Positions 11,286 through 46,385 of a stretch of DNA of 63,419 nt are shown one piece after another. The translations under genes and the position numbers were made by a program. The DNA is from a virus (Duplodnaviria > Caudoviricetes): positions 1-63,419 of the IMG/VR virus record IMGVR_UViG_3300043425_000902; one strand, 5' to 3'. Every line of letters starts with the position of its first letter. Position 1 is the stretch's first letter. The notes below the pieces were generated by a model, which worked only from the letters and a program-made list of their open reading frames with translations, was not told where the DNA came from and did not search any database.

Positions 11286-11480
11286 ATGACGCGGGTCGTG
11301 CTGCCTTCGGGCTTCGTTTACCACAGGCCGCCTTACACAGAGGAAGAGGTGGCCGACATCTACCGGCGCCTTGAACAGGTGACGACGTTTACTCGTCCGA
11401 GTCGTAAGGCGCCGAGCCCGCCACAGCCGCACCAAGACCAAGAGCCGCCGTCAGGGCCGGGAGAAACTCCTTCCGGCTAA
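11286..11480 (+). CDS. Small hypothetical protein convergent with the late operon
   Basis: Strong AAAGGAG RBS; 3' end overlaps the antisense gene by 92 nt. Confidence 0.55.
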   Translation: MTRVVLPSGFVYHRPPYTEEEVADIYRRLEQVTTFTRPSRKAPSPPQPHQDQEPPSGPGETPSG

Positions 11481-12915
11481 GGGCGTCCTTCAGCGCCTTG
11501 GGGCCCCGCTCCCAGATGACGCGGCGCAGGTTCTGCAAGTCCTCGCGCACGGGCTGTCCCGTGCGGGCGGCGTACTCGTAATCGGCCTCCATGGCCGTGC
11601 GGGCTTGGTTGCGGATCTCCGGTGTGTCAAGACGTTCGAGAGCGTTGGGTGCGCCGGACTCTTCGAGGTACTGAAGCATCTGTCGCGTGACGGCACCGGA
11701 TCCGTGAGGCTGCGCCCACTCGTTTTCGTAGCCTTTGTAGCCTGACGCAATACCGACAGCTCGCGGTTGGGCCCCGGGCAGGAGCGTCGAGTACGCGCTT
11801 TCAAGACCGTTCGCGAGGTAGTTTTCGGTTTCCGCCCCTGTCGGGGGTTCGGGGTAGAAGGAAGTCATGGTCACGCCCTGCCCGGTGTCCACCACGTCTC
11901 CAAGCCCGTACCGCTCACCGAGATTTGCGAGGCCTTCAATCTCGCGCTGAGTTTGCTTTTCTGGAAGCGGCGTAAACAGCGAACCGGACAGCTCGCGGGG
12001 AGCCTCGGGCAGCACTTTGTGGTACGCGCCAGCGGCTTGGCCAGACACGGCGGCGCGATACGCTTCCCCGGCTTCCAGCAGGGCTCTGTGCTCAGGCGCA
12101 ATGTCTTCGCCGCCCGGGGTCTCTTTCACGCGCGGCCTGCTTACGAACGCGGGGTTGTATTCGGTTCCTGCCTCGGTCTTGAACATGCCCTGCGCCTCAA
12201 GCATGGGAGCCTGCTCAAGACCCAAAGCGTTGTAGACGATGTCTCGGCTGTTGGGATCTCGAAAGAGGCGCCGGGGGTCAGACGAAAATGCGCCTCTTTC
12301 AAGTTGAAGCTGCGCTGCGTCCGCGGCTGACGTCGGCACTCGCACCAAGTTCGGCAGATGCCCGGTAACTTTGCCGGGGATGACCTCGTGCGTGGCAAAC
12401 GCTACGGCTCGTTCCGGCATTGTCGCCGAAGCGCGAAGGGCTGCGCGCTCTACCGCTTTGGTTCCGGCCTTGAGGGCGGGCTTGGCCGCAGCCGCTCCGG
12501 GCACGGGCAGCATCCCGAGAGCCAGTCCGCCGGTCGCGGCGGCGGCCATCTCGCTGTACTGGCGGTAAGCGGCCATGTCGCCGCGCGCCTTGGCCTCGAT
12601 GGCTTTCTGGCGCAGCTCCTTGGCATCCATCGCGCTCATCACGCCGCCGACGACAGGGAGGTTCTCAGCGACGGTGCGACCGGGGTTGGCCTTGAAGTCT
12701 TCCACCATTCCCATCGCCATGGGCGTGGCGACTTGGTTCTGCAGCACTTGCGGCAAACCCCCGCGCAGAAGGTCGGGCGCGACGCGCATGGCGAGGGCCG
12801 CCGAGTCGCGCAAGGCGTTACCGCTGGATGCGTAGTCGACGGCGCGTTTGCCGAGCGACTTGGCGCCCGCGACGATGGGGTCGTCGAGGATGATGGAGAG
12901 CGGGTTCTTAGGCAT
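11389..12915 (-). CDS. Putative virion-associated effector 3 (shared N-terminal module plus unknown cargo)
   Basis: Last gene of the late operon; N-terminal module paralogous to the two upstream genes. Confidence 0.75.
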   Translation of the reverse strand: MPKNPLSIILDDPIVAGAKSLGKRAVDYASSGNALRDSAALAMRVAPDLLRGGLPQVLQNQVATPMAMGMVEDFKANPGRTVAENLPVVGGVMSAMDAKELRQKAIEAKARGDMAAYRQYSEMAAAATGGLALGMLPVPGAAAAKPALKAGTKAVERAALRASATMPERAVAFATHEVIPGKVTGHLPNLVRVPTSAADAAQLQLERGAFSSDPRRLFRDPNSRDIVYNALGLEQAPMLEAQGMFKTEAGTEYNPAFVSRPRVKETPGGEDIAPEHRALLEAGEAYRAAVSGQAAGAYHKVLPEAPRELSGSLFTPLPEKQTQREIEGLANLGERYGLGDVVDTGQGVTMTSFYPEPPTGAETENYLANGLESAYSTLLPGAQPRAVGIASGYKGYENEWAQPHGSGAVTRQMLQYLEESGAPNALERLDTPEIRNQARTAMEADYEYAARTGQPVREDLQNLRRVIWERGPKALKDALSRKEFLPALTAALGLGAAVAGSAPYDSDE

Positions 12916-15064
12916 GGTCGGCCTCCACTAGGCCCCCTTTAGCGTACACTGGGCCACCAGACAGGATGTGTTGAAGCGCTTCGTCCGGGCTTATGCCGAG
13001 GATCCGCGAAGTCCTCTCCACCGCTTCGTTGATGATGGAGATCATGGGCTGCGGCTTGAAGTTGGGCGTCTTTGCCGTCTTGAGGCCTGCCCAAGTGACG
13101 TCTTGGAAGTTGGCGGGAGCGACGCCGTACTTCGCCGCGAGATCGTGCACGGGCTGCTCGTACAGTCCGTAGTACGTAGGCTGCGCCATCTTTCCGGTGG
13201 GGTCCCACGCGCCCATCATCTGCTCGTCGATGGTGGCTTTGTCGCGATGCCCGAGGAAGTTGCCCTTGAAGTTGAACCTTTTGGGGTTCCCGGCGGTGGT
13301 GAACAGCTCCGGGCTATCCATGAACTTTCGGCCCAGCACGATGTTGCCCATCGCGCCGTGCTTGCCGCCGCCGATCGGATACGGGATTTCGTAACCTTTC
13401 AGTGGTGTGGGCGTTCCGGTCAGGTCGAGGTGGTTCAGGTACCCGGTGGACAGGAAGTTTGTCGCCGGATCGGCGCCGCCGGTCGTTCCCGCCATGCTGT
13501 CGGCGAAGTACTTCTTGAACCGCCTCCGGCCTTCTTCGGGGCCGTACATCTGCATGTATGCCTGCTGCAGTTGCAGCATGGCATACCAGTGCTCTGCGTC
13601 CGGGTTGCCCTGCTGCGCCAGAAACCCCTCCTCCAAACGGCGAAGAGCTGCTGGATCTTGCGCCTTTTCGGTGTGAGCCAAAACAGTGGCTTCTTTTTTG
13701 GGGAGGGTGTCGATGAGCGTCGATCCGGCAAGCGGATAGTCTGCGGGGTCGACGTAGTCCCGCTTGGAGACGTCGAATATCGGCGTGTAGTTGCCCGCCT
13801 TGATGTCCGCAGTGGCCTGTTGCCGCGCCTTTGTCAGGGCTTGGATCTCGGGCGTGTCTGACCCCTTCCCTTCGTAAAAGCGCCCTTTGTTCTTGTCCCA
13901 CTTCTGCTCTGGCGGAGCCGGGTCTGGGTACCGCTCCCGCAGCTTTTCGCGGTCTAGGCCTGCGCTGGGCGCACGGCGCGCGGCGCCGCTTTCCGACCGG
14001 ATGATAGCTGGCGCCGACACCTGTTCGGTGGGCGCTTTGTACAGGTACTCCGCAAGGCGCTCCGGCGACATCGCGCCTTCAAGCCCTTCGCCTCCCGCGT
14101 AGTACCGGACCTCAGCGGGGATGGCGGGGATGCCTAGGGCCCGCGCGACGGCGGCGCGGTTGTTGCCCTCAAGGATAAAGGGCTCTCCCGTGTGGCTGAC
14201 GCCGATCATGATCGGGCCGCCCGCCTCCGCATCGTACCCCCGCTCGCTCATGGAGGGCAGAAGCCGGTCGTACTTCGGGTTGCCCGGTCCCGGGCTTTCG
14301 CGCATGGCCCCGGGAATGTCCTGCAGCTTTTGAGGATCCAAAAGCACGGGGCGGTCCAGATAGCCTGTCACCGCCCCCGCAGGGGCGTTGCGGGCAAAGT
14401 TGCCGCTTGCGCTGTTGTCGGCTGCACGCTCTGCCGCACGCTCGCGCTCGTACTTCAGCCAGTCCCCGCCGGGGTTGTCCCTCTGAACCTTGGGGGGTTC
14501 AAGGCCGTACTTCTCGGTCAGCTTCGAGACGTCGCGCACGACGTCGCGCTCTGCGGCGTTCTTGATCGCGCGCACGCCAGCCTTGCCGACGGCGCGACCG
14601 CCCGGGAGCACACCCGCCGCGATGGTTGCCGAGGAGATGGCGGCAAGCTCTTCCAGCCTGCGCGCCGCACTTTCGTCGCCGCGCTGCCGGGCCTCTTCAG
14701 CCTGATCGCGCAGGGCGCTCGTGTCGAGGGCGGAGAGAGCGCCGCCGACAAAAGGCACAAGCCCGGCCACAGTCTTGACGGGATGCTCCTTGAAGTCTTC
14801 CGCGAACCCTTCGGCGACAGCCTTTCCCCCGCGGACGACACTCCCGACCGGGTCCTTGGCAAGCCGGGACACGTCCTGATCCGCACGACCGCTGGCCACG
14901 TAGTTGCGGAACCGCGCGCCAGCGTCCTGCGCGCCCTGAAGGAGCGACAGGGGGTTGCTCAGCAGCCCTTCCAGCGGCTTGCGCTTCTTGCGGCGCTTGC
15001 CGGTGACGACGACCTCTTCAACCGTCGGGGCGTCGAGCGCGGCGGACATGGGGTTCTCAGGCAC
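12908..15064 (-). CDS. Putative virion-associated effector 2 (TonB-box-like motif, shared module, ParB/Srx-like domain, glycosylase-like domain, YAKGG tail)
   Basis: TVEEVVVTGKR; PIMI......ILEGNNR.......G...IP..V ParB-like core; WY...TIDEQM...QDVTW; likely GTG start at 15064 after GGAG. Confidence 0.75.
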   Translation of the reverse strand: MPENPMSAALDAPTVEEVVVTGKRRKKRKPLEGLLSNPLSLLQGAQDAGARFRNYVASGRADQDVSRLAKDPVGSVVRGGKAVAEGFAEDFKEHPVKTVAGLVPFVGGALSALDTSALRDQAEEARQRGDESAARRLEELAAISSATIAAGVLPGGRAVGKAGVRAIKNAAERDVVRDVSKLTEKYGLEPPKVQRDNPGGDWLKYERERAAERAADNSASGNFARNAPAGAVTGYLDRPVLLDPQKLQDIPGAMRESPGPGNPKYDRLLPSMSERGYDAEAGGPIMIGVSHTGEPFILEGNNRAAVARALGIPAIPAEVRYYAGGEGLEGAMSPERLAEYLYKAPTEQVSAPAIIRSESGAARRAPSAGLDREKLRERYPDPAPPEQKWDKNKGRFYEGKGSDTPEIQALTKARQQATADIKAGNYTPIFDVSKRDYVDPADYPLAGSTLIDTLPKKEATVLAHTEKAQDPAALRRLEEGFLAQQGNPDAEHWYAMLQLQQAYMQMYGPEEGRRRFKKYFADSMAGTTGGADPATNFLSTGYLNHLDLTGTPTPLKGYEIPYPIGGGKHGAMGNIVLGRKFMDSPELFTTAGNPKRFNFKGNFLGHRDKATIDEQMMGAWDPTGKMAQPTYYGLYEQPVHDLAAKYGVAPANFQDVTWAGLKTAKTPNFKPQPMISIINEAVERTSRILGISPDEALQHILSGGPVYAKGGLVEADHA

Positions 15065-17210
15065 GGTCAATCTCCGCTAGGCCGCCCTTGGCGTACGCTT
15101 TGAAGCCTTCGGTCAGGATGCGCTGCCGGGTCTCCGGGTCAAGGCCAAACCCGGGCACCTCGTCGAACTGCCGCTCGTCGTTGTATCGCTCAAACAGGGC
15201 ATCATGCTCGTCGGAGTCGACGATGTCTTCCCACGGCCTGCGGAAATAGTTCGCGATCTCGCTCCCCGACGCGCCGCCCGAGCCACCCGCATACAGGGAG
15301 AACATGTCCATCTCGGGCTGGACGCCGAAGGGCTTCAGCACTTCGTTGATGCGCTTCGGCACGATGCGGTCGTAGAACTCGCGCGAGCCCTTGCCGGGGC
15401 CGACGATGAGATCGGGCGTCTCAAGGACGCCCCAAGGCTCGCTGCGCGAACGCTCGACAAGCGCGCGGGTCAGCGGCTCGCCGATCCGCTTTTCGAGGAG
15501 GTCCGGCGTCCACAGGGCGAGCGCCCGCATCATGTGCTCCGACGACCATGGAAGCCTGTGCGTCGTACCCGCATAGTCGATGGGCGCTATAGAAAACAGC
15601 GGCTCTCCGGGGCGCCACGACTCGGGGCCGCCTAGCGCGCGGGCATTGCGGCTAATGAGTTCTCGGGCCCGCTCTTCATCGAGCGTGTCGAGGGCGCCAA
15701 GCCCTCGCCGAAGGCGGTCTGCGTCAATCGCATCGACGTCCACGGGAACGGTGCGGTAGTGCAGCTCTCGTATCGGGATGTCCTGATTGTACCGCCGAGC
15801 CTGCAGGGCGCCCGGCGTCCACGTGAAATAGTCGCTTTGGCGGCGCGCGGCCTCGGTCAGTGCGCGCTTCAGGCCTAGATCGACCCAGTCGTTCGTGCTT
15901 TCGACGTACGGACCCACCGGCGGCTCGTACGGGTCTCGCTCCTGTTTATTCGCGCGCAGCTGTTGCGCCCAGTCGCTTTGCAGCTCCTCAAGGTGCGTAG
16001 AGCTTCCCAGCGGGTCGTTGGACAGCGGGCGGCTTCGACGTCCCGTGTCGAGGTCATACGCCCACTCTCCGGCCTGTGTGCCGCGCGGGAAAACGTCCCG
16101 GTCAAGCACGCGGATGTGCGCGTACGTGTTGGGATCGTGCTCCCAGTGCGGCGCGCGGTACGCGACACGCGGCCATTTCAGCCTTTCAAGGCTAGGGCTG
16201 CTGTGCTGTCTTTGCGCGATCTCAACCGTCTGGGTTTGATACGGACTTGGCCCACGCAAAAGGATTTCCGAATAGTTCGTGGGGTTGCCGCCATCGAAGT
16301 CTTCCTCACTGAGAGGCTTCGGACCTGCGTCTCTTCCTACATTCAGTGCGAGCGGTTCGCCTCCCGCGGCGTCAAGGCGAGGATTACCCCACCTGTCTAG
16401 CGCGGACTTAGGATCGCGAGCGCTATAGGCGGTCTCATCCATGGCTGAAGGGATCCAAGCCTTGACGCCTAGCGTACGGGCTTTTGGCGGCTCCCGCTCG
16501 ACACCCAGAAGCTGCTCGTCGAAGTGCTTCGCGACCTCGTCCTTCGTCACGGAGGGGCGGTCGCCGAAGACCTCCCGGTACCCCGACCAGCGGATCTCTG
16601 CAGGCTTCACGCCGCTGCGCAGCAGCATCGCCTCTACCTGTTGGGGCGTGCCCTTCTCCTGCGGCAGGTTGCGGGCGACCTCCGCCGCGTGGCTGTAGAG
16701 GTTGAGCGGCGACAGCTTGCGCTCCGCGATGTTCTTGGCGAGGCCCTCGGCGCCCGTCTTGAGGCCGGGCTTGGCGCCGGGGACCATCCCCGCGAGCATC
16801 AGGGGCGTCATGGTCGCTGCGGCGGTCTCCAGCCGCCGTGCGGTCGCCGCGTCGCCGCGGTCTCGGGCCTCTTGAGCCTGCGCGCGGGTGTCCGCGATAT
16901 CCTTGGCGTCGCCGAACGGGGTCAGGCCCAGCAGGGCTTCCGCCGGGTCGCGCCTGAACTCGCGCCCGAAGCTCGACAGGGCGCCGGATGCGGCGCGATC
17001 GAGGGCGCCGACCGGGTCCCGCACGATGTCCTCGCCGAAGCGCATGAGGTCGCCGCTGGCGACGCTTTCGCCCAGCGCGTTGACCAGCGCTCCGGGGACG
17101 CCCTTGGCGCCCTCCAGAAGGGCGCGGGGGTTGCCGAACAGGGCCTTGAGGCGGTTCCGCTTCGGGCGCTTGCCGGTGACGACGACCTCGTCGACAGTGG
17201 TCTCGGTCAC
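15057..17210 (-). CDS. Putative virion-associated effector 1 (TonB-box-like motif, shared module, polyvalent-protein-like cargo, YAKGG tail)
   Basis: TVDEVVVTGKR; cargo motifs GVK.AE..WSG, H......AH.R..DR, EELQSDW that I recognise from large phage virion proteins. Confidence 0.75.
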   Translation of the reverse strand: MTETTVDEVVVTGKRPKRNRLKALFGNPRALLEGAKGVPGALVNALGESVASGDLMRFGEDIVRDPVGALDRAASGALSSFGREFRRDPAEALLGLTPFGDAKDIADTRAQAQEARDRGDAATARRLETAAATMTPLMLAGMVPGAKPGLKTGAEGLAKNIAERKLSPLNLYSHAAEVARNLPQEKGTPQQVEAMLLRSGVKPAEIRWSGYREVFGDRPSVTKDEVAKHFDEQLLGVEREPPKARTLGVKAWIPSAMDETAYSARDPKSALDRWGNPRLDAAGGEPLALNVGRDAGPKPLSEEDFDGGNPTNYSEILLRGPSPYQTQTVEIAQRQHSSPSLERLKWPRVAYRAPHWEHDPNTYAHIRVLDRDVFPRGTQAGEWAYDLDTGRRSRPLSNDPLGSSTHLEELQSDWAQQLRANKQERDPYEPPVGPYVESTNDWVDLGLKRALTEAARRQSDYFTWTPGALQARRYNQDIPIRELHYRTVPVDVDAIDADRLRRGLGALDTLDEERARELISRNARALGGPESWRPGEPLFSIAPIDYAGTTHRLPWSSEHMMRALALWTPDLLEKRIGEPLTRALVERSRSEPWGVLETPDLIVGPGKGSREFYDRIVPKRINEVLKPFGVQPEMDMFSLYAGGSGGASGSEIANYFRRPWEDIVDSDEHDALFERYNDERQFDEVPGFGLDPETRQRILTEGFKAYAKGGLAEIDRA

Positions 17211-20200
17211 CGCGTGTCTCCCGCCTCGAACTCCCGCTGCGCTTGCATGAACGCGGGGATCTTGTCTGGGGTCAAGATGTCGTCCAGCTTCATGCCGGTC
17301 TTTTTGCCGACGTACGCCTTGTAGGCCGCACGCTGCGCAGGCGTGTTGAAGGGGTGCGGCGCGTAGCGCTCGATCACGGCGTCAAGGGTCTTGCCCGCGA
17401 AGCGGTTGCGCAGCAGCGCCTCGTGCGCCGCGTCGCCGTTCTCTAGCGTGTCGAACTTGGCGAGGCCCGTCTTTTCGTCGAAGCCGACGAAGCCCGGCTG
17501 CTTGGCCACCCACGGCGACTTGCTCTTCTTCCCCTCGGCGTTCTGCACGATGTACATGATCGCGCCGCGGTTGTTGAAACGGTTCGTGGCGGCCCCCGCC
17601 GCGGGCGTGTCCTCGGGCGGCATGCCGAAGAAGTCTCCCAGCTCTTTCTCGCGCTGCTCGGGGGGCTTGTCGTCTTCCTCCGTGATCTGCGGCGCGGGCA
17701 CGTCGGGAGGCGCCGTCGGGGACGGGCCCGGCGTGCCGCCGACGTACGTCGCGGTCGGCTGCACCGTGCGCCGGGGCAGGGAGCCAAGGAGGCTGGACCC
17801 GGAGACGATGGCGTTTACACGGCGCATGAACGCGCGGGCAGGACCCTCGCCGTACATCTTTTGGATGCGCGCCATGACCTCGTCGGTCTTGGCCGGGTCG
17901 AGCAGCTCCTGCGTGACCCGCACGGCCTCCTCGCGGCTCATGCCGCGCCCCTCAAGCCAGCGCAGGGCTGGGCCGAGGACCGTGAGCCCGCGCGTGGCGC
18001 GCTCGGCGGCGTTCGCGGCGGTCGGCAGCTCGTCGACGCCTCCGGCACCCCGCGCGGCGGCGGTGGACTCTCCGGCGGCGAGGGCGGCGCGGCTGGAGCG
18101 GTTGACGAGGGCTGTGGCGCGGCGGATGAGCGTCGCCGCCGCCTCAGGGCCCATCAGGGCCTCGACGTTCTCGCGCAGCCGGGCGTCGGTGCGCAGGGCG
18201 CTCAGGAACGACTCCGCCCCCTCGCTCGTGCCGACGGCCTTGGTAGCGGCGTCGCGCCACGCCACCAGAGCGGCCCGCCTCTCACGCGGCGCGAGGTTGG
18301 CGACAGCCGCGGCGAAGTCCGGCGACAGGATGTTGGGCAGGTTCCCGCCGAGCTTGAGAGCGCCGAACAGGCCTTCCGCCTCCTTGGCGGTCTGCGCCGC
18401 GACGGGGAAGGCCTCTTGCTCCTGAGCCGTGAACAGCAGGTCGCGCAGGGTCGGGTTCTCGCGGCTCCACTTGTCCCAGCGGCTGCCGGTCTTGGCCTCG
18501 TCGGGGCCGAGGATCTGCGCCTGAGCGTCCTTGCGCATGGCCTCCCACTCGGGGCTGCCTGCGCCGAGCCTGTCCCTCGCCGCCTTGAGGTTGGTGATGC
18601 CGGTCGGGCTCTTGTCGGTCAGGCTCCCGAACAGCAGGCCGCGCGCACGGCCCGGGTCGTTCTCGACGAGGGCGGCCACGGTCGGGTCGTTGACATAGTT
18701 GCTGTAGTAGTCGCGCGCCTTGAGGATGGCGTCGCGCGTCTTGGAGACGGCCTGCGTGTTCCCTGAGAAGCGCCCCGCCATGTCCAGCCGGTCGACGAGA
18801 CCGTCGAGGGTCCGCCGCGCCTTGCCTGCCGCCGTGGCGGCGGTGGTTCCCGGCACGGCCCGCTCGATCTGCGACAGTTCGCGGCGAAGGCTGAAGATGT
18901 CCGTCGAGGTGAGGGACGACATCTGCGGCTGCTCCAGCCGCTCAAGCGCCTTGAGCACGGGCGTGATCTCGTCAGGCACGACGGTGTAGTCGCTGATCGC
19001 CTCGCGCAGGGCGGCGTTGAACTCTCCGACCGTGGTGGGGCCGATGCCGCGCGCCGTGGCGACCTCAGGGGCGCCGCCGGGAACGATGCGCATGTAGTGC
19101 GTCTCGCCTTCGGTGTACGGCACGCCGAGGTCGTCGAAGCGCTGCCGGTAGTACTTCTCCTCCTGCGGCGTCATGCGCTTCCAGTTGCCGACGGTCTCGC
19201 CGTCGTCACGGGACAGCTGGACGGTGGCGGGCTCCTTGGCGATGGCCGCTTCGTCGTAGGCCTGATCCATGGCGCCCTTGGCGGCGTTGGCCTCGGCCTT
19301 GAGCCTCTCCGCAAAGGCCGACGCGGGCTGGCCCAGCTCGTCGACCTGCGGCGTAATGCCGCGCTGCGCGGCGCTCACGGCGCCTTCCGCCTCCGTGCGC
19401 AGGGCCGCGCCCGTCACGCCCGGAGCCTCGGGGCTGATCTCGCCCGTGGCGCGAGCGCCAGCGGCCTGCGTGCCGGACGGCCCGCGCACCTCTTCGTTGT
19501 ACTTCCTGAACATGCCCGACGTGTCAGGCTCCGCGGCGCCCGTCCGGCGCGCCAACCTCGACGTGATGCCCTCATCAAGGACATCGACGGGCCGGGCCTC
19601 GACGCCAACCTCGGACAGCGCGCCCCGGGTGAGGCCCATGTCCTCGGTGTTGGCGACGGCAGGCCGTCCGCCGGGCTGGACGCTCTCACGCGCAGCGCGC
19701 GTCAGGGCCTCTTCGGGCGCTCCGAAGGCGGCGGTGTTGGCTGCCCACGGCTTGCCCATGAGCGCACCCACGCCCGTCATGGCGCCAATGCGCTGCAGGC
19801 TCGGCGTCTCTCCGCTGTACGCCTGACGTATGGCCTCGGAGCCTCCGCTCAGGATGGCGGACAGGGCGGTGGGCCCCAGCTGCGTCGTCGGGCGCCCGCT
19901 CACGAGCCCGGTAAGCCCTTGCCCGACGGCGGTGGCTGTCGGGTACCGCTCGGTGTCGAGACGCTCTTGGATGGGCGACCAGCCGAGCTTTTCCTGCAGC
20001 CAGTACGGCATGCGCTCCAGCAGTTCGCCCTGTCCCTGCAGCCCCGCGCCGTATCCCGATGCGCCTCCGATAACCGCACCCACCAGCGCGCCTGTAGGCG
20101 CCGTAACTTCGGCGAACGGGCCGCCAAGCATGCCCAGCGCTCCGCCCGTGCGCGCGCCCACCCCAGCCCCGGGAATGGCGGAGAGCATGGGGATCATAGA

Positions 20201-20599
20201 ACGCGACGCGCTGCGCACTGCAGCCCCGAACGCGCCACCCGGCGTCGAGGGCTCGCTCTCGCGTATCCGCGCCCCGATGTCCTGCTTTCCCGCCTTGGGG
20301 CCGATGCTGCGCTCGATCGCCGACTTCAGGTCGTCGACGCCCATGTACCGACCACCCATGTTGGTCGCGGCGGCTTCTTCTTCCGTGAGGCCGGGCCCGG
20401 CAAGCGTGGTCGGAGGCTCGTCCGTCTTGGGGAAGTCCGGCACCTGCTTCGGCTTCGCCTCGGGGTTGATGCGCTTCTCGACGAGCTTGCCGTCGGGCGT
20501 GATGAGGCCACGCGAGACCGCCGTCTCGTACAGGGCCTGCTCTTCCGGCTGGAGCAGGCCGCGCTTGGCGCCTTCAGCGAGGAGTTCGTATTCCGTCAT
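17207..20599 (-). CDS. Large DNA ejection/internal virion protein with C-terminal lysozyme-like domain
   Basis: 1130 aa, Gly/Ala-rich hydrophobic segments; C-terminal NN.G.I...F.....G..A...L......T....I.RYAP...N motif. Confidence 0.72.
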   Translation of the reverse strand: MTEYELLAEGAKRGLLQPEEQALYETAVSRGLITPDGKLVEKRINPEAKPKQVPDFPKTDEPPTTLAGPGLTEEEAAATNMGGRYMGVDDLKSAIERSIGPKAGKQDIGARIRESEPSTPGGAFGAAVRSASRSMIPMLSAIPGAGVGARTGGALGMLGGPFAEVTAPTGALVGAVIGGASGYGAGLQGQGELLERMPYWLQEKLGWSPIQERLDTERYPTATAVGQGLTGLVSGRPTTQLGPTALSAILSGGSEAIRQAYSGETPSLQRIGAMTGVGALMGKPWAANTAAFGAPEEALTRAARESVQPGGRPAVANTEDMGLTRGALSEVGVEARPVDVLDEGITSRLARRTGAAEPDTSGMFRKYNEEVRGPSGTQAAGARATGEISPEAPGVTGAALRTEAEGAVSAAQRGITPQVDELGQPASAFAERLKAEANAAKGAMDQAYDEAAIAKEPATVQLSRDDGETVGNWKRMTPQEEKYYRQRFDDLGVPYTEGETHYMRIVPGGAPEVATARGIGPTTVGEFNAALREAISDYTVVPDEITPVLKALERLEQPQMSSLTSTDIFSLRRELSQIERAVPGTTAATAAGKARRTLDGLVDRLDMAGRFSGNTQAVSKTRDAILKARDYYSNYVNDPTVAALVENDPGRARGLLFGSLTDKSPTGITNLKAARDRLGAGSPEWEAMRKDAQAQILGPDEAKTGSRWDKWSRENPTLRDLLFTAQEQEAFPVAAQTAKEAEGLFGALKLGGNLPNILSPDFAAAVANLAPRERRAALVAWRDAATKAVGTSEGAESFLSALRTDARLRENVEALMGPEAAATLIRRATALVNRSSRAALAAGESTAAARGAGGVDELPTAANAAERATRGLTVLGPALRWLEGRGMSREEAVRVTQELLDPAKTDEVMARIQKMYGEGPARAFMRRVNAIVSGSSLLGSLPRRTVQPTATYVGGTPGPSPTAPPDVPAPQITEEDDKPPEQREKELGDFFGMPPEDTPAAGAATNRFNNRGAIMYIVQNAEGKKSKSPWVAKQPGFVGFDEKTGLAKFDTLENGDAAHEALLRNRFAGKTLDAVIERYAPHPFNTPAQRAAYKAYVGKKTGMKLDDILTPDKIPAFMQAQREFEAGDTR

Positions 20600-22047
20600 C
20601 GCCGCCTCGTCGCGTTCAGAGCCTCAAGCACCTCGTCGTCCGTCATCTCGCTGGGCGCCTTGCCCGAGGTGGGCTGCGTGATGGCCTTCACTCGCCGGTA
20701 CATGGACATCACCTGCTGCCCGTCGCGCTTCATGCTCTCCAGCACGTTGGTGTAGTGCTGAATGACGATCTTGGCGTTGGCTTGGACATCTTCCAGCTTC
20801 ATGGACTGGTTGAGCGCGGCGATGGACCTTTCGAGCATGGCCAGTTCGCGCTCGGTGACCGAGCCTAGGCCGGATGCGCCCGTGGTGCTCTGCTGCTTCA
20901 GCTCGGCCAGCTTGGCCATGGCGAGGTTGCCGACGGTCGTCTTCAGCTCTTCCGCCACCGAGAACGGCTCGGACCCGGGCGCGAACTTCAGGATGGCGCC
21001 CGCCGGGCCCGTCGTGAGGCCGGTGAACCGCGAATACAGGCGGCGGATCTGGTTGAGCTTGGCCGTCTCCGAGACGAGGCCCGACTGCAGCGCGTTCAGG
21101 TTCGACAGGTACTCTTCGGGCGTCGGCAGGGGCTTCTCGTTGGCGAAGGGCTTGAACTCCCCGGTCGAGGTCTCGAACTGTCCGCGGATGTACGTGCCGC
21201 CTGACCGGCGCAGGGCCTCATCCCCTGACACGACCTTCAGGCCGGGGATCGGCGTGGCGCCGGTCGTGGTGACGTTGTAGATGGCGTCGGGGTTCAGGCC
21301 CAGCGCCTCTCCGGGCACACCCACCTGCCCGACGTACTGTCGCCACTTTTCTCCGGCAGGCGCGCCCGCCGCAGGAGCACCCTCGCCGGGAGGCGGAGGG
21401 GGCGGAGGAGGCATGGCGCCCGCAGCCGGGGCCCCGGGCGCAGCGCCCATGGCGGCAGCTCCACCCGCGACCTGATCCGGGGTGACTTGGCTGAGGTCTT
21501 GCAGGGAGTTGAAGGGCACGGTCTGGCCGCCTTCGAGGACGACCATGCCGTCAGGGACCCTCGCTCCGGTGTAGGGGTTGAACGAGTACATCTTGCCGTC
21601 GGTGGTGTTGTACTGCGTGACGAGCTTGGCGAGCTTGGGCGTCCTCGGGGCGGTCTTGGTGAGGTACTTCAGCTCAAGGGCGGAGTCCGCGAGCTTCTTT
21701 TTCAGCTCCTGCTCGGCGTCCTGCGCCGCGGCCTGAGCCTGCTGCTCGCGGATCTTGTCTCCGCTGCTTTGCCAGCTCTCCAGCCCCTGTTGCAGGCCGA
21801 CCCACCCAGACCCCCAGCGGTTGGGCTTGGCCGCGGCGAGGAAGGCGCGCGACAGACGCTGCAGGTCGCTCGGCACCGCCATCTGGCGCGCCTCACGGAT
21901 CTTCCGACCGTACTCGTCGTACGCGGCGCTCGTGCTCTGCTTGAGGGACGCGAGCGTGCCCGCGGGCAGAGCCATGCTCTGTTCCTGCGGGGCGATCGTG
22001 GAGAGGGCGCCGGAGGCCTGCGTCGAGTCTTCGTCTTCGGGGTCCAT
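20596..22047 (-). CDS. DNA ejection/internal virion protein
   Basis: Position; GASGLGSVTEREL motif; C-terminal SEMTDDEV. Confidence 0.7.
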   Translation of the reverse strand: MDPEDEDSTQASGALSTIAPQEQSMALPAGTLASLKQSTSAAYDEYGRKIREARQMAVPSDLQRLSRAFLAAAKPNRWGSGWVGLQQGLESWQSSGDKIREQQAQAAAQDAEQELKKKLADSALELKYLTKTAPRTPKLAKLVTQYNTTDGKMYSFNPYTGARVPDGMVVLEGGQTVPFNSLQDLSQVTPDQVAGGAAAMGAAPGAPAAGAMPPPPPPPPGEGAPAAGAPAGEKWRQYVGQVGVPGEALGLNPDAIYNVTTTGATPIPGLKVVSGDEALRRSGGTYIRGQFETSTGEFKPFANEKPLPTPEEYLSNLNALQSGLVSETAKLNQIRRLYSRFTGLTTGPAGAILKFAPGSEPFSVAEELKTTVGNLAMAKLAELKQQSTTGASGLGSVTERELAMLERSIAALNQSMKLEDVQANAKIVIQHYTNVLESMKRDGQQVMSMYRRVKAITQPTSGKAPSEMTDDEVLEALNATRRR

Positions 22048-22056
22048 CAGCCGCTC

Positions 22057-23094
22057 CTAGATGTAGCCCTTGCTCTTCAGCCAGTCGAACACTTCCGTGG
22101 CGGTGGCGAGAGCCGTGTTGATGTTGCTGGCCGTCGTCGGGCCCGGGCCCGCAGGCGTGCCCTGCGGCTCGTACCCCTTGTACGTCTCGCCCTGCGGGAT
22201 GCCGCCCTGCAGGGTCTTGGCCGTCGCGGCGGCGTCGTTGATGCGCTTCTGCTTGTCGGCCTGCTCGTTGATCCAGTCCTGATACGCGACGTCGTAGTTC
22301 TTCTGGACCTGACCCTGCTGCTTGTCGCCGATGGTGGACAGGGCTCCGGCGCCCGTGAGCCCGAGGGCCTGCTGGCGCGCCGCCATGTCGCCCATCTGCG
22401 CGGCGGTGGCGCGGCGGGAGGTGATGTCGCCCGCGCCGAGGGCGCCAGCCGTCTGGCCGAGGCCCGCGATGCGCGACAGGTCGGTATTCGCGGCGCTCAG
22501 GGCTCCGCTGTAGCCGGACGACAGGGCCTCGGCCTGCTTGGCCGTGATGCCCTCCATCGTATCGCGGATGCCCCGACCGATCATCTCGGCCTGACGCGAC
22601 CCGCCGAACTGCCCCGACTTGATGAAGCGGTCGCTGATCTCCGGCAGGATTTGCTCGCGCAGGGTGCGCGCGCCGAGTTCCCCGATGCGGTTGACCACCG
22701 CGTCTTGGTAGGGGTTCATGTATTGCTGCACCTGAGACGCCGACGTCTGCGCGGCGCGGTTCAGGTAGGGCTGGGCGGTCTCAAGGCCGCCCGGCGCGTT
22801 CATCAGGCCCGCCGTGGCGCCCTGAGCCGCGTTCAGGCCCGGCTGGTAGGAAAACGCCGCGTCCTTGGTGGCCGCGAACCCAGCCTGCTGGTCGGGCGTG
22901 AACCCCGCGACGCGCGGGCCCTGATAGGTCAGGTACGGGGCGTCCATGACCGCGCGCTGGTTCGACAGCACCTGCATGGTGTAGTTGTTGTACCAGTCCG
23001 GCAGGACTGTCGTCTTGGTGTAGGCCTTCGGCTGAACGGCGGCGTTGCCGCTGTTCAGGAAGGTGGTCATGCCGTCGTCGGTGCCTGTGGGCAT
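22057..23094 (-). CDS. DNA ejection/pilot protein
   Basis: Gln/Ala/Gly-rich; YMNPY and FGGSR motifs typical of podovirus internal proteins. Confidence 0.75.
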   Translation of the reverse strand: MPTGTDDGMTTFLNSGNAAVQPKAYTKTTVLPDWYNNYTMQVLSNQRAVMDAPYLTYQGPRVAGFTPDQQAGFAATKDAAFSYQPGLNAAQGATAGLMNAPGGLETAQPYLNRAAQTSASQVQQYMNPYQDAVVNRIGELGARTLREQILPEISDRFIKSGQFGGSRQAEMIGRGIRDTMEGITAKQAEALSSGYSGALSAANTDLSRIAGLGQTAGALGAGDITSRRATAAQMGDMAARQQALGLTGAGALSTIGDKQQGQVQKNYDVAYQDWINEQADKQKRINDAAATAKTLQGGIPQGETYKGYEPQGTPAGPGPTTASNINTALATATEVFDWLKSKGYI

Positions 23095-23095
23095 C

Positions 23096-25582
23096 TTAGG
23101 TTCGTCCTCCGCGCAGGTAGGCTTCGGGGGGTTTGGCGTTAGCGCTGAAAGCCCCCTTGGCGAGCTTCCTGCCCTTGTGCTTGCGGATGTTTACACGGAA
23201 CTGGTCGAGGCGGTCAGCCCCGGCTTTCGTCGAGCCGTCTCCGAGCAGGGCCACGGTCTCGGCGTCAATGACGTACTCCCCGTCGCTCAGGCGGGCCGGG
23301 ATCTTGTCGTCGCGCCCGGAACCCATGCCGCGCACGGCGAAGCCGCCGCGGGCGAAGTCCTCGGGGTTGGCGGACGGCGCGGGCATCGGCAGCGGGCGGG
23401 CGACCACGTCGCGGAACGGCGTGGGGTTGGTCGGCGCTTGGTTGTAGACGCCCGCCTCGTAAGGCGTCGGGCCGGTGAAGGTTGGGCCTGCGCCGGGCAG
23501 CGTAGACGCCGCAGGAACGCCGCTGACAGCGAACGGCGAGGTCGGGGCGGTGGGCGACTGGGGGGCGGTTCGCGCCAGCCGTTCGTTAACGGCGGCTTGC
23601 GCATCGGCCTCGGTCGCGTAGTCCCGCCAGAACACACCGTTCCCGGCTTCCCCGGTCTTGGCGTAGAACTTCCCGCCGTGAGACACGACCTTTGAAGGGT
23701 CAGCCTTGTCCAGCACCGCGCTGGTTTGCGCCCACGCATCGTTCTGCGCCTTGATCGCGGCGCGCGAGTTCGCAGACTGAACCGCGTAATCCGAGGCGTA
23801 CTTGTCGGCCTCTTCGCGGGTGTTGAACGTCGCCCCTGTGTCACCGATCATCACGGTGTATCCGCCGGGCCCACCACCGACGCGCGGCGTGAAATTGGGG
23901 ACCGGCGGGCTGTCGTTGGTCGGCTCAGGCCAGTAGCCGCCCGCCACCTGAACATCAGGCGTCGGGGTCACGTTGGCCGCAAAGCCGGTGGGCGACGGGA
24001 GGATACCCGACGGGCGCTGCGGCGTGCTGTTCAGGAACGCGACCTGCCCGCGCTGCCCGTAAGTGGCCCACTCCTCGGGCGTCATGCTGACGTTGCGCGC
24101 TGACATGTCGGCGAACGGCCCGGAAGGTGGCGGGAGCTTGGCGCGGAAGATGTCGGGCAAGCTGCCCGGGGTGCCCGCGTCGAGCACGCCAGCCGGAAGC
24201 GATGCGGGGCCTGAGCCTTGCGTCGCGGTCGTGACGCCGCCTGACACAAGCGACAGAAGTTTGAGCCAGTCGGCCCAGCTCATCCCGGCGGGCTTTTTGC
24301 TGTCGTCCAAACTGTCGTCGCCCGGATCGCTGCTGGTTTCCCCGTCGTCCGTGCCGCTGAACGTATCGGTCCCGGGCAGACTATCTTCACTGGGCTCGAC
24401 GACAACTTCCGAGACATCGGTCGCAGGGGTTGTGGTTACGGTGCTGAGGGCTCCGCCCGGCAGGCTGTCGTTACCACCGCCCTCGACGACGACTTCCGAG
24501 ACCGACGGCTCGGCGGTCTTGGGGGCGGCGGTCACGCTGGTGAGAGCCCCGACGCCAGCGCCGGTCAGTGGGTCCGTGCTGGCGGTAACGTCCACCCCCT
24601 CGATGGTGTTGCCGACTGTGTCAGCGCCCGTGCCGCCCCGCATGACGTTCTGGCCGCCCGCTCCGGTAACGGCGGAGCCCCCGACTGCACTAAGTGCGCC
24701 ACCAGTCACCGCGTCAACGCCGCCCTTGACGCCTTGGACAATGACCTCTCGGACGGTGTTTCCCGCGCCGGTAGCCGCTTTGCCGAGGGTGTCGGTGACG
24801 ACGTTCCCCGCCCCGTCGACGGCGCGCGTGACCGCGTTGAGAGGCTTCATCACGGCGGAGTAGCCGTTGTACATAGCCTGCCCTATGGGGCTCTCGCTGT
24901 TCGCCAGCACCTTGCCCAGCTTGCCGACGGCAGTGCCCCCGACGTAGGTCAGGCCCGCGCTCAGCGCGGCGCGCTTGACAGTCTCCTCGAAACTGCGCCC
25001 CTGAGCCACGGACGACAGCGCCGAGCCCGCGGCGGAGCCCACGGCAGCCCACGCCAGACCGATGCCCGGCGCAAGGATGGCGCCGATGATCGGCAGGGCG
25101 AAGTCGGCCACCTTGCCGAGCAGGCTTTGCTTCTTGGGGTCCCAGCGCTCCTCGGCCATGGACACCCAGCCGCCCTCGTCGGTCGGCTTCTGGATGGCCC
25201 ACGCCGCCGTGCGGCCTTGGTTCTGGGATATTGAGTTGGCGACGGCGGTGGCGGTTTGCGCCGCCTCGGGCCCCGCCCCCTCGAAGACGACATCACCCGT
25301 CATCTTGTCGACGAGACGGATCTTCTGCCCGGGGGCAACCATCACGGCGCCCGCGAAATCCCCGTCGTTGGTGTAGGCCGCGTAGTAGGGGGTGGCGTAG
25401 CCCTTGTTCGGATCGGCAGGCATGAGCTGCGCGTTGCGGAGCGGCGACTCCGGCTTCGGCGGGTCGCCGGGCGTCGCGCTCGCAGTCCCGTAGCGCCCGC
25501 GCTGAACGGCGCCGGGGCTCACGGCGAAATCGCCGCGCTCGCCCTGCAGGACTTCCGGGTTTACAGCAAAGCCTTCAGGCAT
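23096..25582 (-). CDS. Ejection protein with membrane segment, TonB-box-like repeats and FARGG...RLSDGEYV C-terminal domain
   Basis: Hydrophobic LPIIGAILAPGIGLAWAAVG; EVVVE-type repeats; FARGG..V.G.G.G..D.IPARLSDGEYV. Confidence 0.72.
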   Translation of the reverse strand: MPEGFAVNPEVLQGERGDFAVSPGAVQRGRYGTASATPGDPPKPESPLRNAQLMPADPNKGYATPYYAAYTNDGDFAGAVMVAPGQKIRLVDKMTGDVVFEGAGPEAAQTATAVANSISQNQGRTAAWAIQKPTDEGGWVSMAEERWDPKKQSLLGKVADFALPIIGAILAPGIGLAWAAVGSAAGSALSSVAQGRSFEETVKRAALSAGLTYVGGTAVGKLGKVLANSESPIGQAMYNGYSAVMKPLNAVTRAVDGAGNVVTDTLGKAATGAGNTVREVIVQGVKGGVDAVTGGALSAVGGSAVTGAGGQNVMRGGTGADTVGNTIEGVDVTASTDPLTGAGVGALTSVTAAPKTAEPSVSEVVVEGGGNDSLPGGALSTVTTTPATDVSEVVVEPSEDSLPGTDTFSGTDDGETSSDPGDDSLDDSKKPAGMSWADWLKLLSLVSGGVTTATQGSGPASLPAGVLDAGTPGSLPDIFRAKLPPPSGPFADMSARNVSMTPEEWATYGQRGQVAFLNSTPQRPSGILPSPTGFAANVTPTPDVQVAGGYWPEPTNDSPPVPNFTPRVGGGPGGYTVMIGDTGATFNTREEADKYASDYAVQSANSRAAIKAQNDAWAQTSAVLDKADPSKVVSHGGKFYAKTGEAGNGVFWRDYATEADAQAAVNERLARTAPQSPTAPTSPFAVSGVPAASTLPGAGPTFTGPTPYEAGVYNQAPTNPTPFRDVVARPLPMPAPSANPEDFARGGFAVRGMGSGRDDKIPARLSDGEYVIDAETVALLGDGSTKAGADRLDQFRVNIRKHKGRKLAKGAFSANAKPPEAYLRGGRT

Positions 25583-45470: not shown

Positions 45471-46385
45471 TCAGACGCCAGCGGTCCCGTAGATGCCGCG
45501 CGGATCGGTCCAGCCGAACGCATAACGCTCGGTGGCCTTGTACCGCATGGAGTCGGTCTCGAAGTCGCCTTCCATGGACTTCTCCAGCCCGCGGCGCTTG
45601 GCCAGCTTCAGGCCTTCGGGCGCATCGGTCTGGATCCACCAAGCGGTGGTCGAGGTGATACGCGCGAGGTTGGCCTGACCGCCCTTGAGCATGCCCATGG
45701 ACTTCACCGGGTTGATGTCGTTGTTGGCCGTGCCAGCGCGCAGGGCCGAGTTCAGGATGACCTCGGCTTGAAACACGTTGGAGGGGCCGGTCACGAGCTG
45801 AGTGCCGGTGAGCCGGATGCGCTTGCCGTTGCTGTCGACGGCGTTGCGGATCTGGATCAGGAGCTGCTCCACCGAGGTCTGGGACATCGCCGCAGCGGTG
45901 CTCAGGACGTTGGAGAAGGTGCCGTTGACGATCGGGTGGTTGTTGGCCACCAGCGCCACGCCGTCGCCGCCCTGATACGAACCGTTGAAGGAGCGGTTCA
46001 GGACGTTGGCGCCGAGGGTCTCCTTGGTCTCGACCAGCGACTGGGCGAGGTGCTTGGAGTAGGTCGAGCCGATGCGGATGTGGTCGCCGTCCTCGACAAG
46101 GACCTTGGTCAGGGCGAAGGCCAGACCGTAGACCTTGTAGATGTAGCGCTGCAGGAAGAGCACGCCGCCGGACTGGTAGGTGACGGGCATGCCGTCGGGC
46201 AGTTCGGGGGCGGCGCCCATGCCGTAGAGAACAGGCTCTTCGTGGTAGTTCCGCGGCGTGCCGCTGAACTCCTTGAAGACCTGCTTCCACTCGTCGGCGC
46301 GCTGGTCGTAGATGCCGTCGAACTCTTCGTTCATGATCGGCTCGACGATGGACCGGAAGTCGGTTGACCTCATGGGGTTAGCCAT
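45471..46385 (-). CDS. Major capsid protein
   Basis: 304 aa; GDG..L....HP, EGDFET...RYK..ERY.FGW.DPRG.YG..G; position after scaffold. Confidence 0.9.
   Translation of the reverse strand: MANPMRSTDFRSIVEPIMNEEFDGIYDQRADEWKQVFKEFSGTPRNYHEEPVLYGMGAAPELPDGMPVTYQSGGVLFLQRYIYKVYGLAFALTKVLVEDGDHIRIGSTYSKHLAQSLVETKETLGANVLNRSFNGSYQGGDGVALVANNHPIVNGTFSNVLSTAAAMSQTSVEQLLIQIRNAVDSNGKRIRLTGTQLVTGPSNVFQAEVILNSALRAGTANNDINPVKSMGMLKGGQANLARITSTTAWWIQTDAPEGLKLAKRRGLEKSMEGDFETDSMRYKATERYAFGWTDPRGIYGTAGV

Follow-up and report, generated by a model that had tools for sequence, protein, structure and literature searches.

How the internal proteins and the DNA of short-tailed phages cross the periplasm, and what source supplies the energy for this step, is the question raised by the locus described here. 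The locus lies in the viral record IMGVR_UViG_3300043425_000902, which is complete at 63,419 bp with about 67% GC (this whole stretch of DNA is referred to as the window) and which, as judged from its genes, is a podophage syntenic with the Caulobacter phages RW and RLK. Directly downstream of its ejection-protein genes, and translationally coupled to them, are two genes on the minus strand, g717 and g720, whose products carry near the N-terminus a short motif resembling the TonB box of TonB-dependent transporters. From the sequence evidence set out below, we lean towards the reading that this motif is a portable TonB-box mimic on virion-delivered proteins.

In g717 (717 residues, 15057..17210), the motif reads TVDEVVVTGKR and occupies residues 5-15 (17166..17198); in the translation it runs into a basic patch, KRPKRNRLK, at residues 14-22 (17145..17171). 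The corresponding motif of g720, TVEEVVVTGKR (14993..15025), is followed in the translation by the patch KRRKKRK (14978..14998) and then by a Pro. An earlier note on this DNA had reported motifs at 17166-17198 and 14993-15025, a basic patch after each of them and a 25-nt identical DNA core. Both positions were borne out on the minus strand, the patches (KRPKRNRLK and KRRKKRKP) were found as described, and a longest-run comparison returned 25 nt as the longest DNA identity between the two sites (14992-15016 = 17165-17189). A search with the pattern [DE][DEQT][VIL][VI]V[TS][AG] in the six frames of the window gave these two motif sites as the sole matches.

The start codon of g717 is a GTG that overlaps the stop codon of the preceding gene, g1130, in the arrangement GGGAG-N7-GTG. 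The longest open reading frame (ORF) of g720 (12908..15070) encodes 720 residues and places the motif at residues 16-26; its start is likely the GTG at 15064, which would yield a product of 718 residues beginning with MPENPMS and carrying the motif at residues 14-24. This GTG was preferred because its GGAG-N7-GTG spacing equals that of g717 and because the MPENP prefix matches the MPKNP start of the paralogues (MPKNPLS in g508 and its orthologues). The first ~165 residues of g717 and g720 are related (40% identity over 167 residues, E 2e-25) and their last 12 residues are common (YAKGGL[VA]E.D.A), while the middle parts differ. Since the two motif copies are paralogous, they represent one evolutionary event, not two. 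Two other interpretations of the motif were considered and rejected: a Rossmann/SDR-type 'VVVTGxxxGxG' site, because no GxG follows the motif, and a fragment of a TonB-dependent transporter, because neither a signal peptide nor a Plug domain is present in g717 or g720.

A box matrix was built from the regions upstream of the 30 best Plug matches in a Caulobacter genome with 109 Plug matches, a box being present in 28 of the 30. The consensus of these 28 boxes is VEEVVVTGIRI, compared with VEEVVVTGKRR in g720 and VDEVVVTGKRP in g717. On this matrix, which represents Caulobacter boxes that may not be those of the phage host, the g720 motif scored 25.9 bits and the g717 motif 21.0 bits, placing them at ranks 1 and 2 among all 11-mers of 72 greedy ORFs (20,510 residues). 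The maxima of 200 composition-preserving shuffles of the proteome had a median of 8.0, a 95th percentile of 14.8 and a top value of 20.7; hence, none of the 200 reached either motif. Genuine Caulobacter boxes, when scored by leave-one-out, ranged from 10.1 to 30.4 bits with a median of 24.7. The phage motif equals the box form of the Caulobacter transporters at 10 of 11 positions and its scores lie inside the genuine-box range, which upholds the assignment proposed in the earlier note; the motif is, by its consensus, of the Caulobacter type, and this fits the kinship of the phage. The likeness to the transporters lies in the box consensus, and the two kinds of protein differ in what comes after it: a Plug domain and a 22-strand barrel in the transporters, a basic patch and a module modelled as helical, with no signal peptide, in g717 and g720.

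One genome per bacterial species was also scanned with a DNA pattern of the octapeptide EVVVTGKR. This gave at least 120 stretches, two of which are the phage's own contig in a metagenome bin. Among the matches listed, 71 of the 118 remaining stretches lie in ORFs of at least 250 residues; Plug was found in 31 of these 71 ORFs, the TonB-dependent barrel in 24 and a carboxypeptidase-regulatory domain, which precedes the box in Bacteroidota transporters, in 25, with the rest belonging to scattered families. Judged by these domains, the octapeptide appears in bacterial genomes mostly to mark TonB-dependent transporters, among the matches listed. Apart from this, two of the 71 ORFs also match the TonB_C family, and two large bacterial proteins carry the motif internally: one in a Caulobacter sp. 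genome (L136:2480-4978), with GGLDEVVVTGKRKLAEQ at residue ~620 of 833, and another (L116:3505-7590) with NEEVVVTGKRASLPKP at ~611 of 1362.

Comparison of the neighbouring genes revealed that the motif travels within a larger N-terminal unit. The last three genes of the ejection operon, g717, g720 and g508, which are consecutive, have in common an N-module of ~165 residues (residues 1-170 of g717, 16701..17210, minus strand). The third paralogue, g508 (11389..12915, minus strand), has kept this N-module without a cassette of ~36 residues that takes in the motif together with its basic patch and a further ~20 residues downstream. Nine N-module proteins with a known N-terminus were available, P0237 being excluded because its N-terminus is cut, and the cassette is present in five of them: g717, g720, P0087, P0216 and an ORF of L173. 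In each of the five the motif reads T-V-[DE]-E-V-V-V-T-G-K-R, despite module identities of only 33-51% and unlike payloads. Conservation of the motif in homologues was thereby confirmed, in that it is invariant wherever the cassette occurs (5/5) and is missing, together with the cassette, in the other four of the nine. Because the motif-less paralogue and orthologues have retained the N-module, the module rather than the motif is the likelier incorporation signal, and the motif would be an add-on. In P0236, a protein from a phage contig of 63.2 kb that is related to the window, a stretch corresponding to the C-terminal 360 residues of g720 is fused to a motif-less N-module, which indicates recent shuffling of heads and payloads. 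An AF2 model of the g717 N-module showed coil at residues 1-19 followed by an all-helical structure, with low confidence (mean pLDDT 50).

The size of this family depends on how its members were searched for. L173, a metagenome contig in which the 567-residue ORF again follows a g1130 homologue and closes the operon, was found by a search built on four motif-bearing sequences (507 pattern matches, one relative), through which only motif-bearing relatives could be found. In a profile search of protein representatives, the alignment included P0087 in full, which gave a profile of 488 positions, and the majority of the 150 matches listed correspond to the ART payload; among them, only P0092, P0108 and P0216 match the N-module. 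The profile was thus diluted by the payload, and the N-module family may therefore exceed the members named here. A search of IMG/VR with the g717 N-module returned no relative, and one with the four-sequence N-module alignment matched 32 stretches, none of which is a relative.

The minus-strand block that contains these genes encodes a terminase, a portal, a head protein/protease, an SU10-type adaptor, a tail fibre and a 716-residue virion protein (g716), and then a run of large proteins in the order g828 (tape-measure-like), g345, g483, g1130, g717, g720 and g508. The genes g1130, g483 and g345 (17207..23094, minus strand), between g828 and g717, are ejection-protein genes; g345 corresponds to the PHROG 'DNA ejection protein', and all three are syntenic with gp063c-gp065c of Caulobacter phage RLK. 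The order adaptor-fibre-g716-g828-g345-g483-g1130 as a whole matches gp070c-gp063c of RLK, with identities of 75% for the adaptor, 57% for g716 and 50% for g345, and the DNA polymerase is nearest to those of the cultured Caulobacter phages RW, RLK, GB2A and KcrB (53%). RLK has no gene beyond the g1130 orthologue; g717, g720 and g508 are therefore extra genes that close the ejection operon. Searches among cultured phages with the 9-kb region, g1130 and the 30-residue N-terminus found no close DNA or protein relative, and g717 and g720 gave only partial, distant matches to such phages. Save for two weak matches, no prophage relatives were detected in 40 relatives of the metagenome bin that includes the phage contig (bin G001) or in 200 genomes of the family to which the Caulobacter genome belongs.

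Further copies of the motif were encountered in other large phage proteins. The EVVVTGKR DNA pattern occurs in 20 stretches of IMG/VR: ten fall within five large-protein families, one forms the last eight residues of a 568-residue ORF, and nine are in frames that do not look coding. The families L004/L006/L021, L020/L022 and L005/L015 are positional orthologues of g828 from the same lineage (adaptor identity 43-64%), and they contain 3-6 tandem copies scoring at least 10 bits, located in linkers with 3-32% proline; LEEVTVTGKRI, LQEIEVTGKRI, LDEVIVTGSKY and LDTVTVTAQRP are examples. In the window, g828 (23096..25582, minus strand) is a tape-measure-like ejection protein with degenerate copies in its disordered middle, namely VREVIVQGVKG (24722-24754, 13.7 bits), VSEVVVEGGGN (24470-24502, 7.0 bits) and VSEVVVEPSED (24383-24415, 4.0 bits), and five of the 12 top-scoring windows of the proteome fall in this protein. 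The corresponding protein of RLK (recorded host C. vibrioides), gp066c, contains VDEIVVT, which is the best match to the 7-residue core in that proteome (22.3 bits; 0/200 shuffles, maximum 18.7), and VDELVIK and VDPVVVN come next in the same linker. The arrays in other ejection-type proteins widen the TonB-box idea rather than weaken it. As a separate observation on g828, the protein ends in a conserved SDGEYVIDAE domain, and its C-terminal ~90 residues (23099-23380, minus strand; SDGEYVIDAETVALLGDGS) are found again in proteins annotated as tape measures, both in siphophages that infect Actinobacteria, Pseudomonas and other hosts and, as 'tape measure' proteins, in some podophages; thus, a podophage ejection protein has a module in common with them.

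A fourth family (L009/L018) is unrelated to those above. It is represented by a 988-residue virion protein of a T4-like phage, the gene of which adjoins the baseplate hub/lysozyme gene, and it contains LEEVVVTGKRV in a disordered N-terminal linker, with a score that was reached by 0 of 2000 shuffles. In orthologues at 45% identity, the motif is not in the N-terminal linker, and the C-terminal linker contains LQEVQVTG[RV]R instead, with scores that were reached by 28 and 36 of 2000 shuffles. The T4-like ORFs compared were L213 501-3467, with the motif N-terminal, and L217 435-3479 and L221 468-3518, with the motif C-terminal. The motif is retained while its place shifts, always within disordered segments, and therefore, as far as these ORFs can tell, it behaves like a short linear motif with a common partner, kept for its presence and not for its position. 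Since the two phage lineages are unrelated, a host partner in common is more likely than a phage partner. Throughout these comparisons the match to the host box, the conservation, the recurrence and the gene context were seen directly, and the place in unstructured segments is predicted, with low confidence for the N-terminus of g717.

We infer from this setting that the proteins may be present in the virion, become exposed in the periplasm, bind TonB and be coupled to its force or energy. The portable N-terminal cassette of ~36 residues (motif and basic patch) would carry the mimic of the host TonB box, and g717 and g720 would be modular cargo, in which the N-module would serve for incorporation, the effector payload would vary and the C-terminus would carry a YAxGGLVE motif. 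Both proteins are probably packed in the capsid and would exit via the tail with the other ejection proteins. Their probably unstructured N-terminus would then emerge from the outer membrane on its periplasmic side, where TonB seeks exposed boxes, and the C-terminal domain of TonB would pair with the motif as a beta-strand, as it does with transporters and group B bacteriocins. The TonB-ExbBD motor, driven by the proton-motive force (pmf), could subsequently pull or anchor the cargo protein, and the motif arrays in the tape-measure-like ejection protein of related phages may serve the ejection machinery likewise. More tentatively, and with less confidence than we attach to the mimicry on these proteins, phages that infect transporter-rich Gram-negative hosts might make general use of portable TonB boxes, present singly at the N-terminus of injected effectors and as arrays in the disordered linkers of tape-measure-like ejection proteins, such that TonB-ExbBD and the pmf would pull virion proteins and the DNA channel from the tail across the periplasm in at least two unrelated lineages. 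Genome delivery would in that case have an outside energy source.

Several observations weigh against these proposals. Four of the nine N-module proteins (g508, P0092, P0108 and P0236) are without the motif, and the window's own g828 holds only degenerate copies. The array proteins are not fully independent evidence, because they come from the same phage lineage (adaptors 43-75% identical), and the RLK site, when scored as a full 11-mer, reaches 13.7 bits, which is within the shuffle range (95th percentile 14.6). In addition, the same 63.4-kb phage contig (L128, L130) is included in the bacterial metagenome bin G001, which has 19 Plug matches and a box consensus, AQRITITGSKI, of a flavour unlike the phage motif; on the G001 matrix the phage motifs gave only 11.5 and 5.7 bits, versus at least 17.1 for the G001 boxes. 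This means that the host is a bacterium other than that of bin G001 or else that the motifs mimic the host boxes imperfectly, and since the phage motif is of the Caulobacter type and the G001 boxes differ from it, the bin is a doubtful host. A scan of viral contigs for QRVEITGS, a box flavour common in G001, gave two matches, neither of them in a phage virion protein; one lies in a 51-residue open frame taken as non-coding and the other is a real transporter. The payloads look cytoplasmic (ParB-like, ART), and a periplasmic pull alone leaves the crossing of the inner membrane unexplained. Finally, to our knowledge, and in the literature searched, no podophage is known with TonB-dependent ejection.

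The alternative that survives best, and one that we still consider unlikely, is that the motif is a phage-internal assembly strand that pairs with the portal, core or nozzle in order to load or position cargo, with its TonB-box likeness being due to convergence of two beta-strand motifs. Internal proteins of T4 have N-terminal capsid-targeting peptides, most of the strong copies of the motif come from one lineage with a conserved adaptor, fibre and g716, and conservation of the motif extends over contigs of 49-67% GC and so probably over different hosts; all of these would be in keeping with a role in assembly. Such a role is difficult to reconcile with the motif-less paralogues, which share the N-module and should be packaged too, with a copy number of 1-6 and a shifting linker position, which are unusual for a fixed structural contact, and with the occurrence of the motif in the unrelated T4-like lineage. 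Convergence is also an unlikely route to a host-box match at 10 of 11 positions that includes TG.R.

TonB-box mimicry is the established means by which bacteriocins cross the outer membrane at the expense of the pmf. Like g717 and g720, in which the unstructured lead and the nuclease-type cargo are putative, the group B colicins, pesticin and pyocin S2 are large proteins with the box in the first ~25 residues of an unstructured lead and with nuclease-type cargo. In the parts of a 2024 TonB review that were covered, pyocin S2 is described as a 74-kDa endonuclease with its box at residues 11-15, which engages TonB1 after being threaded through FpvAI, whereupon pmf-dependent translocation follows (PMC11658791). 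Pyocin S2 is the closest precedent for the proposed mechanism. The pyocin S2-like layout of the phage proteins, i.e. a box no more than ~20 residues from the N-terminus, a lead that is probably unstructured and payloads of nuclease or ART type, would also be expected if they were released at lysis and entered neighbouring cells from outside via a TonB-dependent transporter, like pyocin S2 or colicin D; we rate this explanation as improbable. Bacteriocins that enter by this route have receptor-binding domains and immunity genes, whereas for g717 and g720 arrival through the tail is proposed and neither feature was found: g717, g720 and g508 overlap, leaving no room for an immunity gene or small ORF, and domain searches of g717 and g720 gave no recognisable receptor-binding or bacteriocin domain. 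Translational coupling to the ejection-protein genes and the presence of the same motif inside tape-measure-like virion proteins argue further against uptake from outside.

Beta-augmentation with a periplasmic partner other than TonB, be it TolA domain III, a chaperone or a component of the Lpt or Bam systems, seems at least as improbable. TolA binds the N-terminal strand of TolB in a like manner, and filamentous phages make use of it, their g3p binding periplasmic TolA, a pmf-linked energy transducer related to TonB. The g3p case differs from the present one in its use of the Tol system and of a folded domain instead of a short strand, and in that the filamentous phages are of a different type from the window podophage. 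The match of the phage motif is specific to the region upstream of Plug domains, and transporter families lead among the bacterial octapeptide ORFs in the matches listed, both of which argue against another partner.

We find it very hard to credit that the motif is a processing site, cut by a prohead protease after [LV]-x-E or at the dibasic KR, or a cleaved capsid-targeting peptide. The prohead protease of T4 cuts after L/I-x-E and thereby removes a capsid-targeting sequence of ~10 residues from the N-terminus, a head-maturation-protease-like gene is present in the window at 45471-46385, and [LV]-x-E precedes nearly every copy of the motif (V-[DE]-E in g717 and g720). Host transporters, however, carry the same [LVI]-[DE]-E prefix, so the prefix itself belongs to the box likeness; moreover, the conservation of VVVTG.R beyond the supposed cut would be unexplained, and cleavage within the tandem arrays would shred the ejection protein. 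No more credible is a chance by-product of V/E-rich, high-GC sequence with no separate function, which fits the data poorly: the motif is short, the window copies are paralogues and 9 of the 20 viral-contig DNA-pattern matches are in frames that do not look coding, but both motif scores lie beyond all 200 shuffles, modules with only 33-51% identity carry the motif unchanged, and further copies occur in arrays and in the T4-like lineage.

The reading of the motif as a TonB-box mimic on virion-delivered proteins may be set beside what has been described for other phages. Infection by T1 and phi80 requires TonB and the pmf, a dependence that runs via the receptor FhuA and irreversible adsorption, with no box on a phage protein described in the sections of the review covered; phages figure in those sections only as users of TonB-dependent receptors (PMC11658791). 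The ejection proteins of podophages (T7 gp14-16, P22 gp7/16/20 and N4) are, like the window genes, placed after adaptor, nozzle and fibre genes, and in the excerpts of the literature covered they are presumed to be head-packed and expelled to span the periplasm; no TonB box on the T7, P22 or N4 ejection proteins is reported in these excerpts. PDB sequence searches detected no sequence relation between the window ejection proteins and solved podophage ejection proteins, and returned nothing useful for the ejection-operon proteins.

Downstream of the N-module, g717 consists of a payload domain of the LYSHAAE...KGTPQQ type and a C-terminal YAKGGLAEIDRA motif, and g720, which starts with the MPENP prefix, motif, basic patch and N-module, continues with a weak ParB-like region and another domain before its C-terminal YAKGGLVEADHA motif. 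No Pfam family matched either protein above threshold. The middle of g717 is a domain that is found in many metagenomic proteins also carrying ART-PolyVal, ParB and other polyvalent-protein domains, and the ParB-like stretch of g720 is weak (tblastn E 0.03 to mycobacteriophage ParB-like proteins). In P0216, a homologue of g720, ART-PolyVal was matched over the cut-off (E 4.4e-10) and ParB_N weakly (E 0.061). As stated in the parts of their paper covered, Iyer et al. (2017) predicted that polyvalent phage proteins encoded next to virion genes are packaged and injected (PMC5512222). Such proteins resemble the relatives of g717 and g720, as far as these parts describe them, in being modular, in their late-gene context and in combining ART-PolyVal with ParB-like domains (PMC5512222). 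The virion-gene context of g717 and g720 fits this class, with effector families over threshold only in the homologue P0216 (ART-PolyVal). TonB is never mentioned in the paper of Iyer et al., and the passages covered contain no description of the N-module, of its motif cassette or of the YAxGG motif at the C-terminus (PMC5512222).

This last element is the second short motif of the locus; its general form is [YF]-[AK]-x-G-G-[LVEF]-[VA], and EKYG[VL] frequently comes after it. In the window it lies at 15060-15095 and 12911-12946 (minus strand), i.e. at the extreme C-terminus of g717 and g720, a position that it occupies in many homologues; in others it is near the N-terminus or internal, as in YADGGEV of L004, FARGGFAV of g828 and also the L020 proteins. 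It was further detected in P0004, P0006, P0025, P0032, P0033, P0067, P0081-P0086, P0087, P0216 and P0236, and the string EKYG is also present at the junction of N-module and payload in P0092 and P0108. This motif may be a packaging or processing signal.

In the full-text literature searched, with most subscription journals and supplementary files outside its coverage, no virion or ejection protein of a phage was found to be described as carrying a TonB box. Parasitism of TonB by means of its box is already known for bacteriocins, and its putative use on phage virion proteins appears to be new in the literature found. The TonB-box reading is directly testable with peptides and existing laboratory strains. 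If it is true, phage ejection would have a defined host motor, and tonB and exbBD would be predicted host factors for a class of phages that includes cultured Caulobacter phages. It would likewise account for the disordered Pro-rich arrays in the tape-measure-like proteins of these phages, and would provide a short, transplantable tag for the delivery of cargo proteins.

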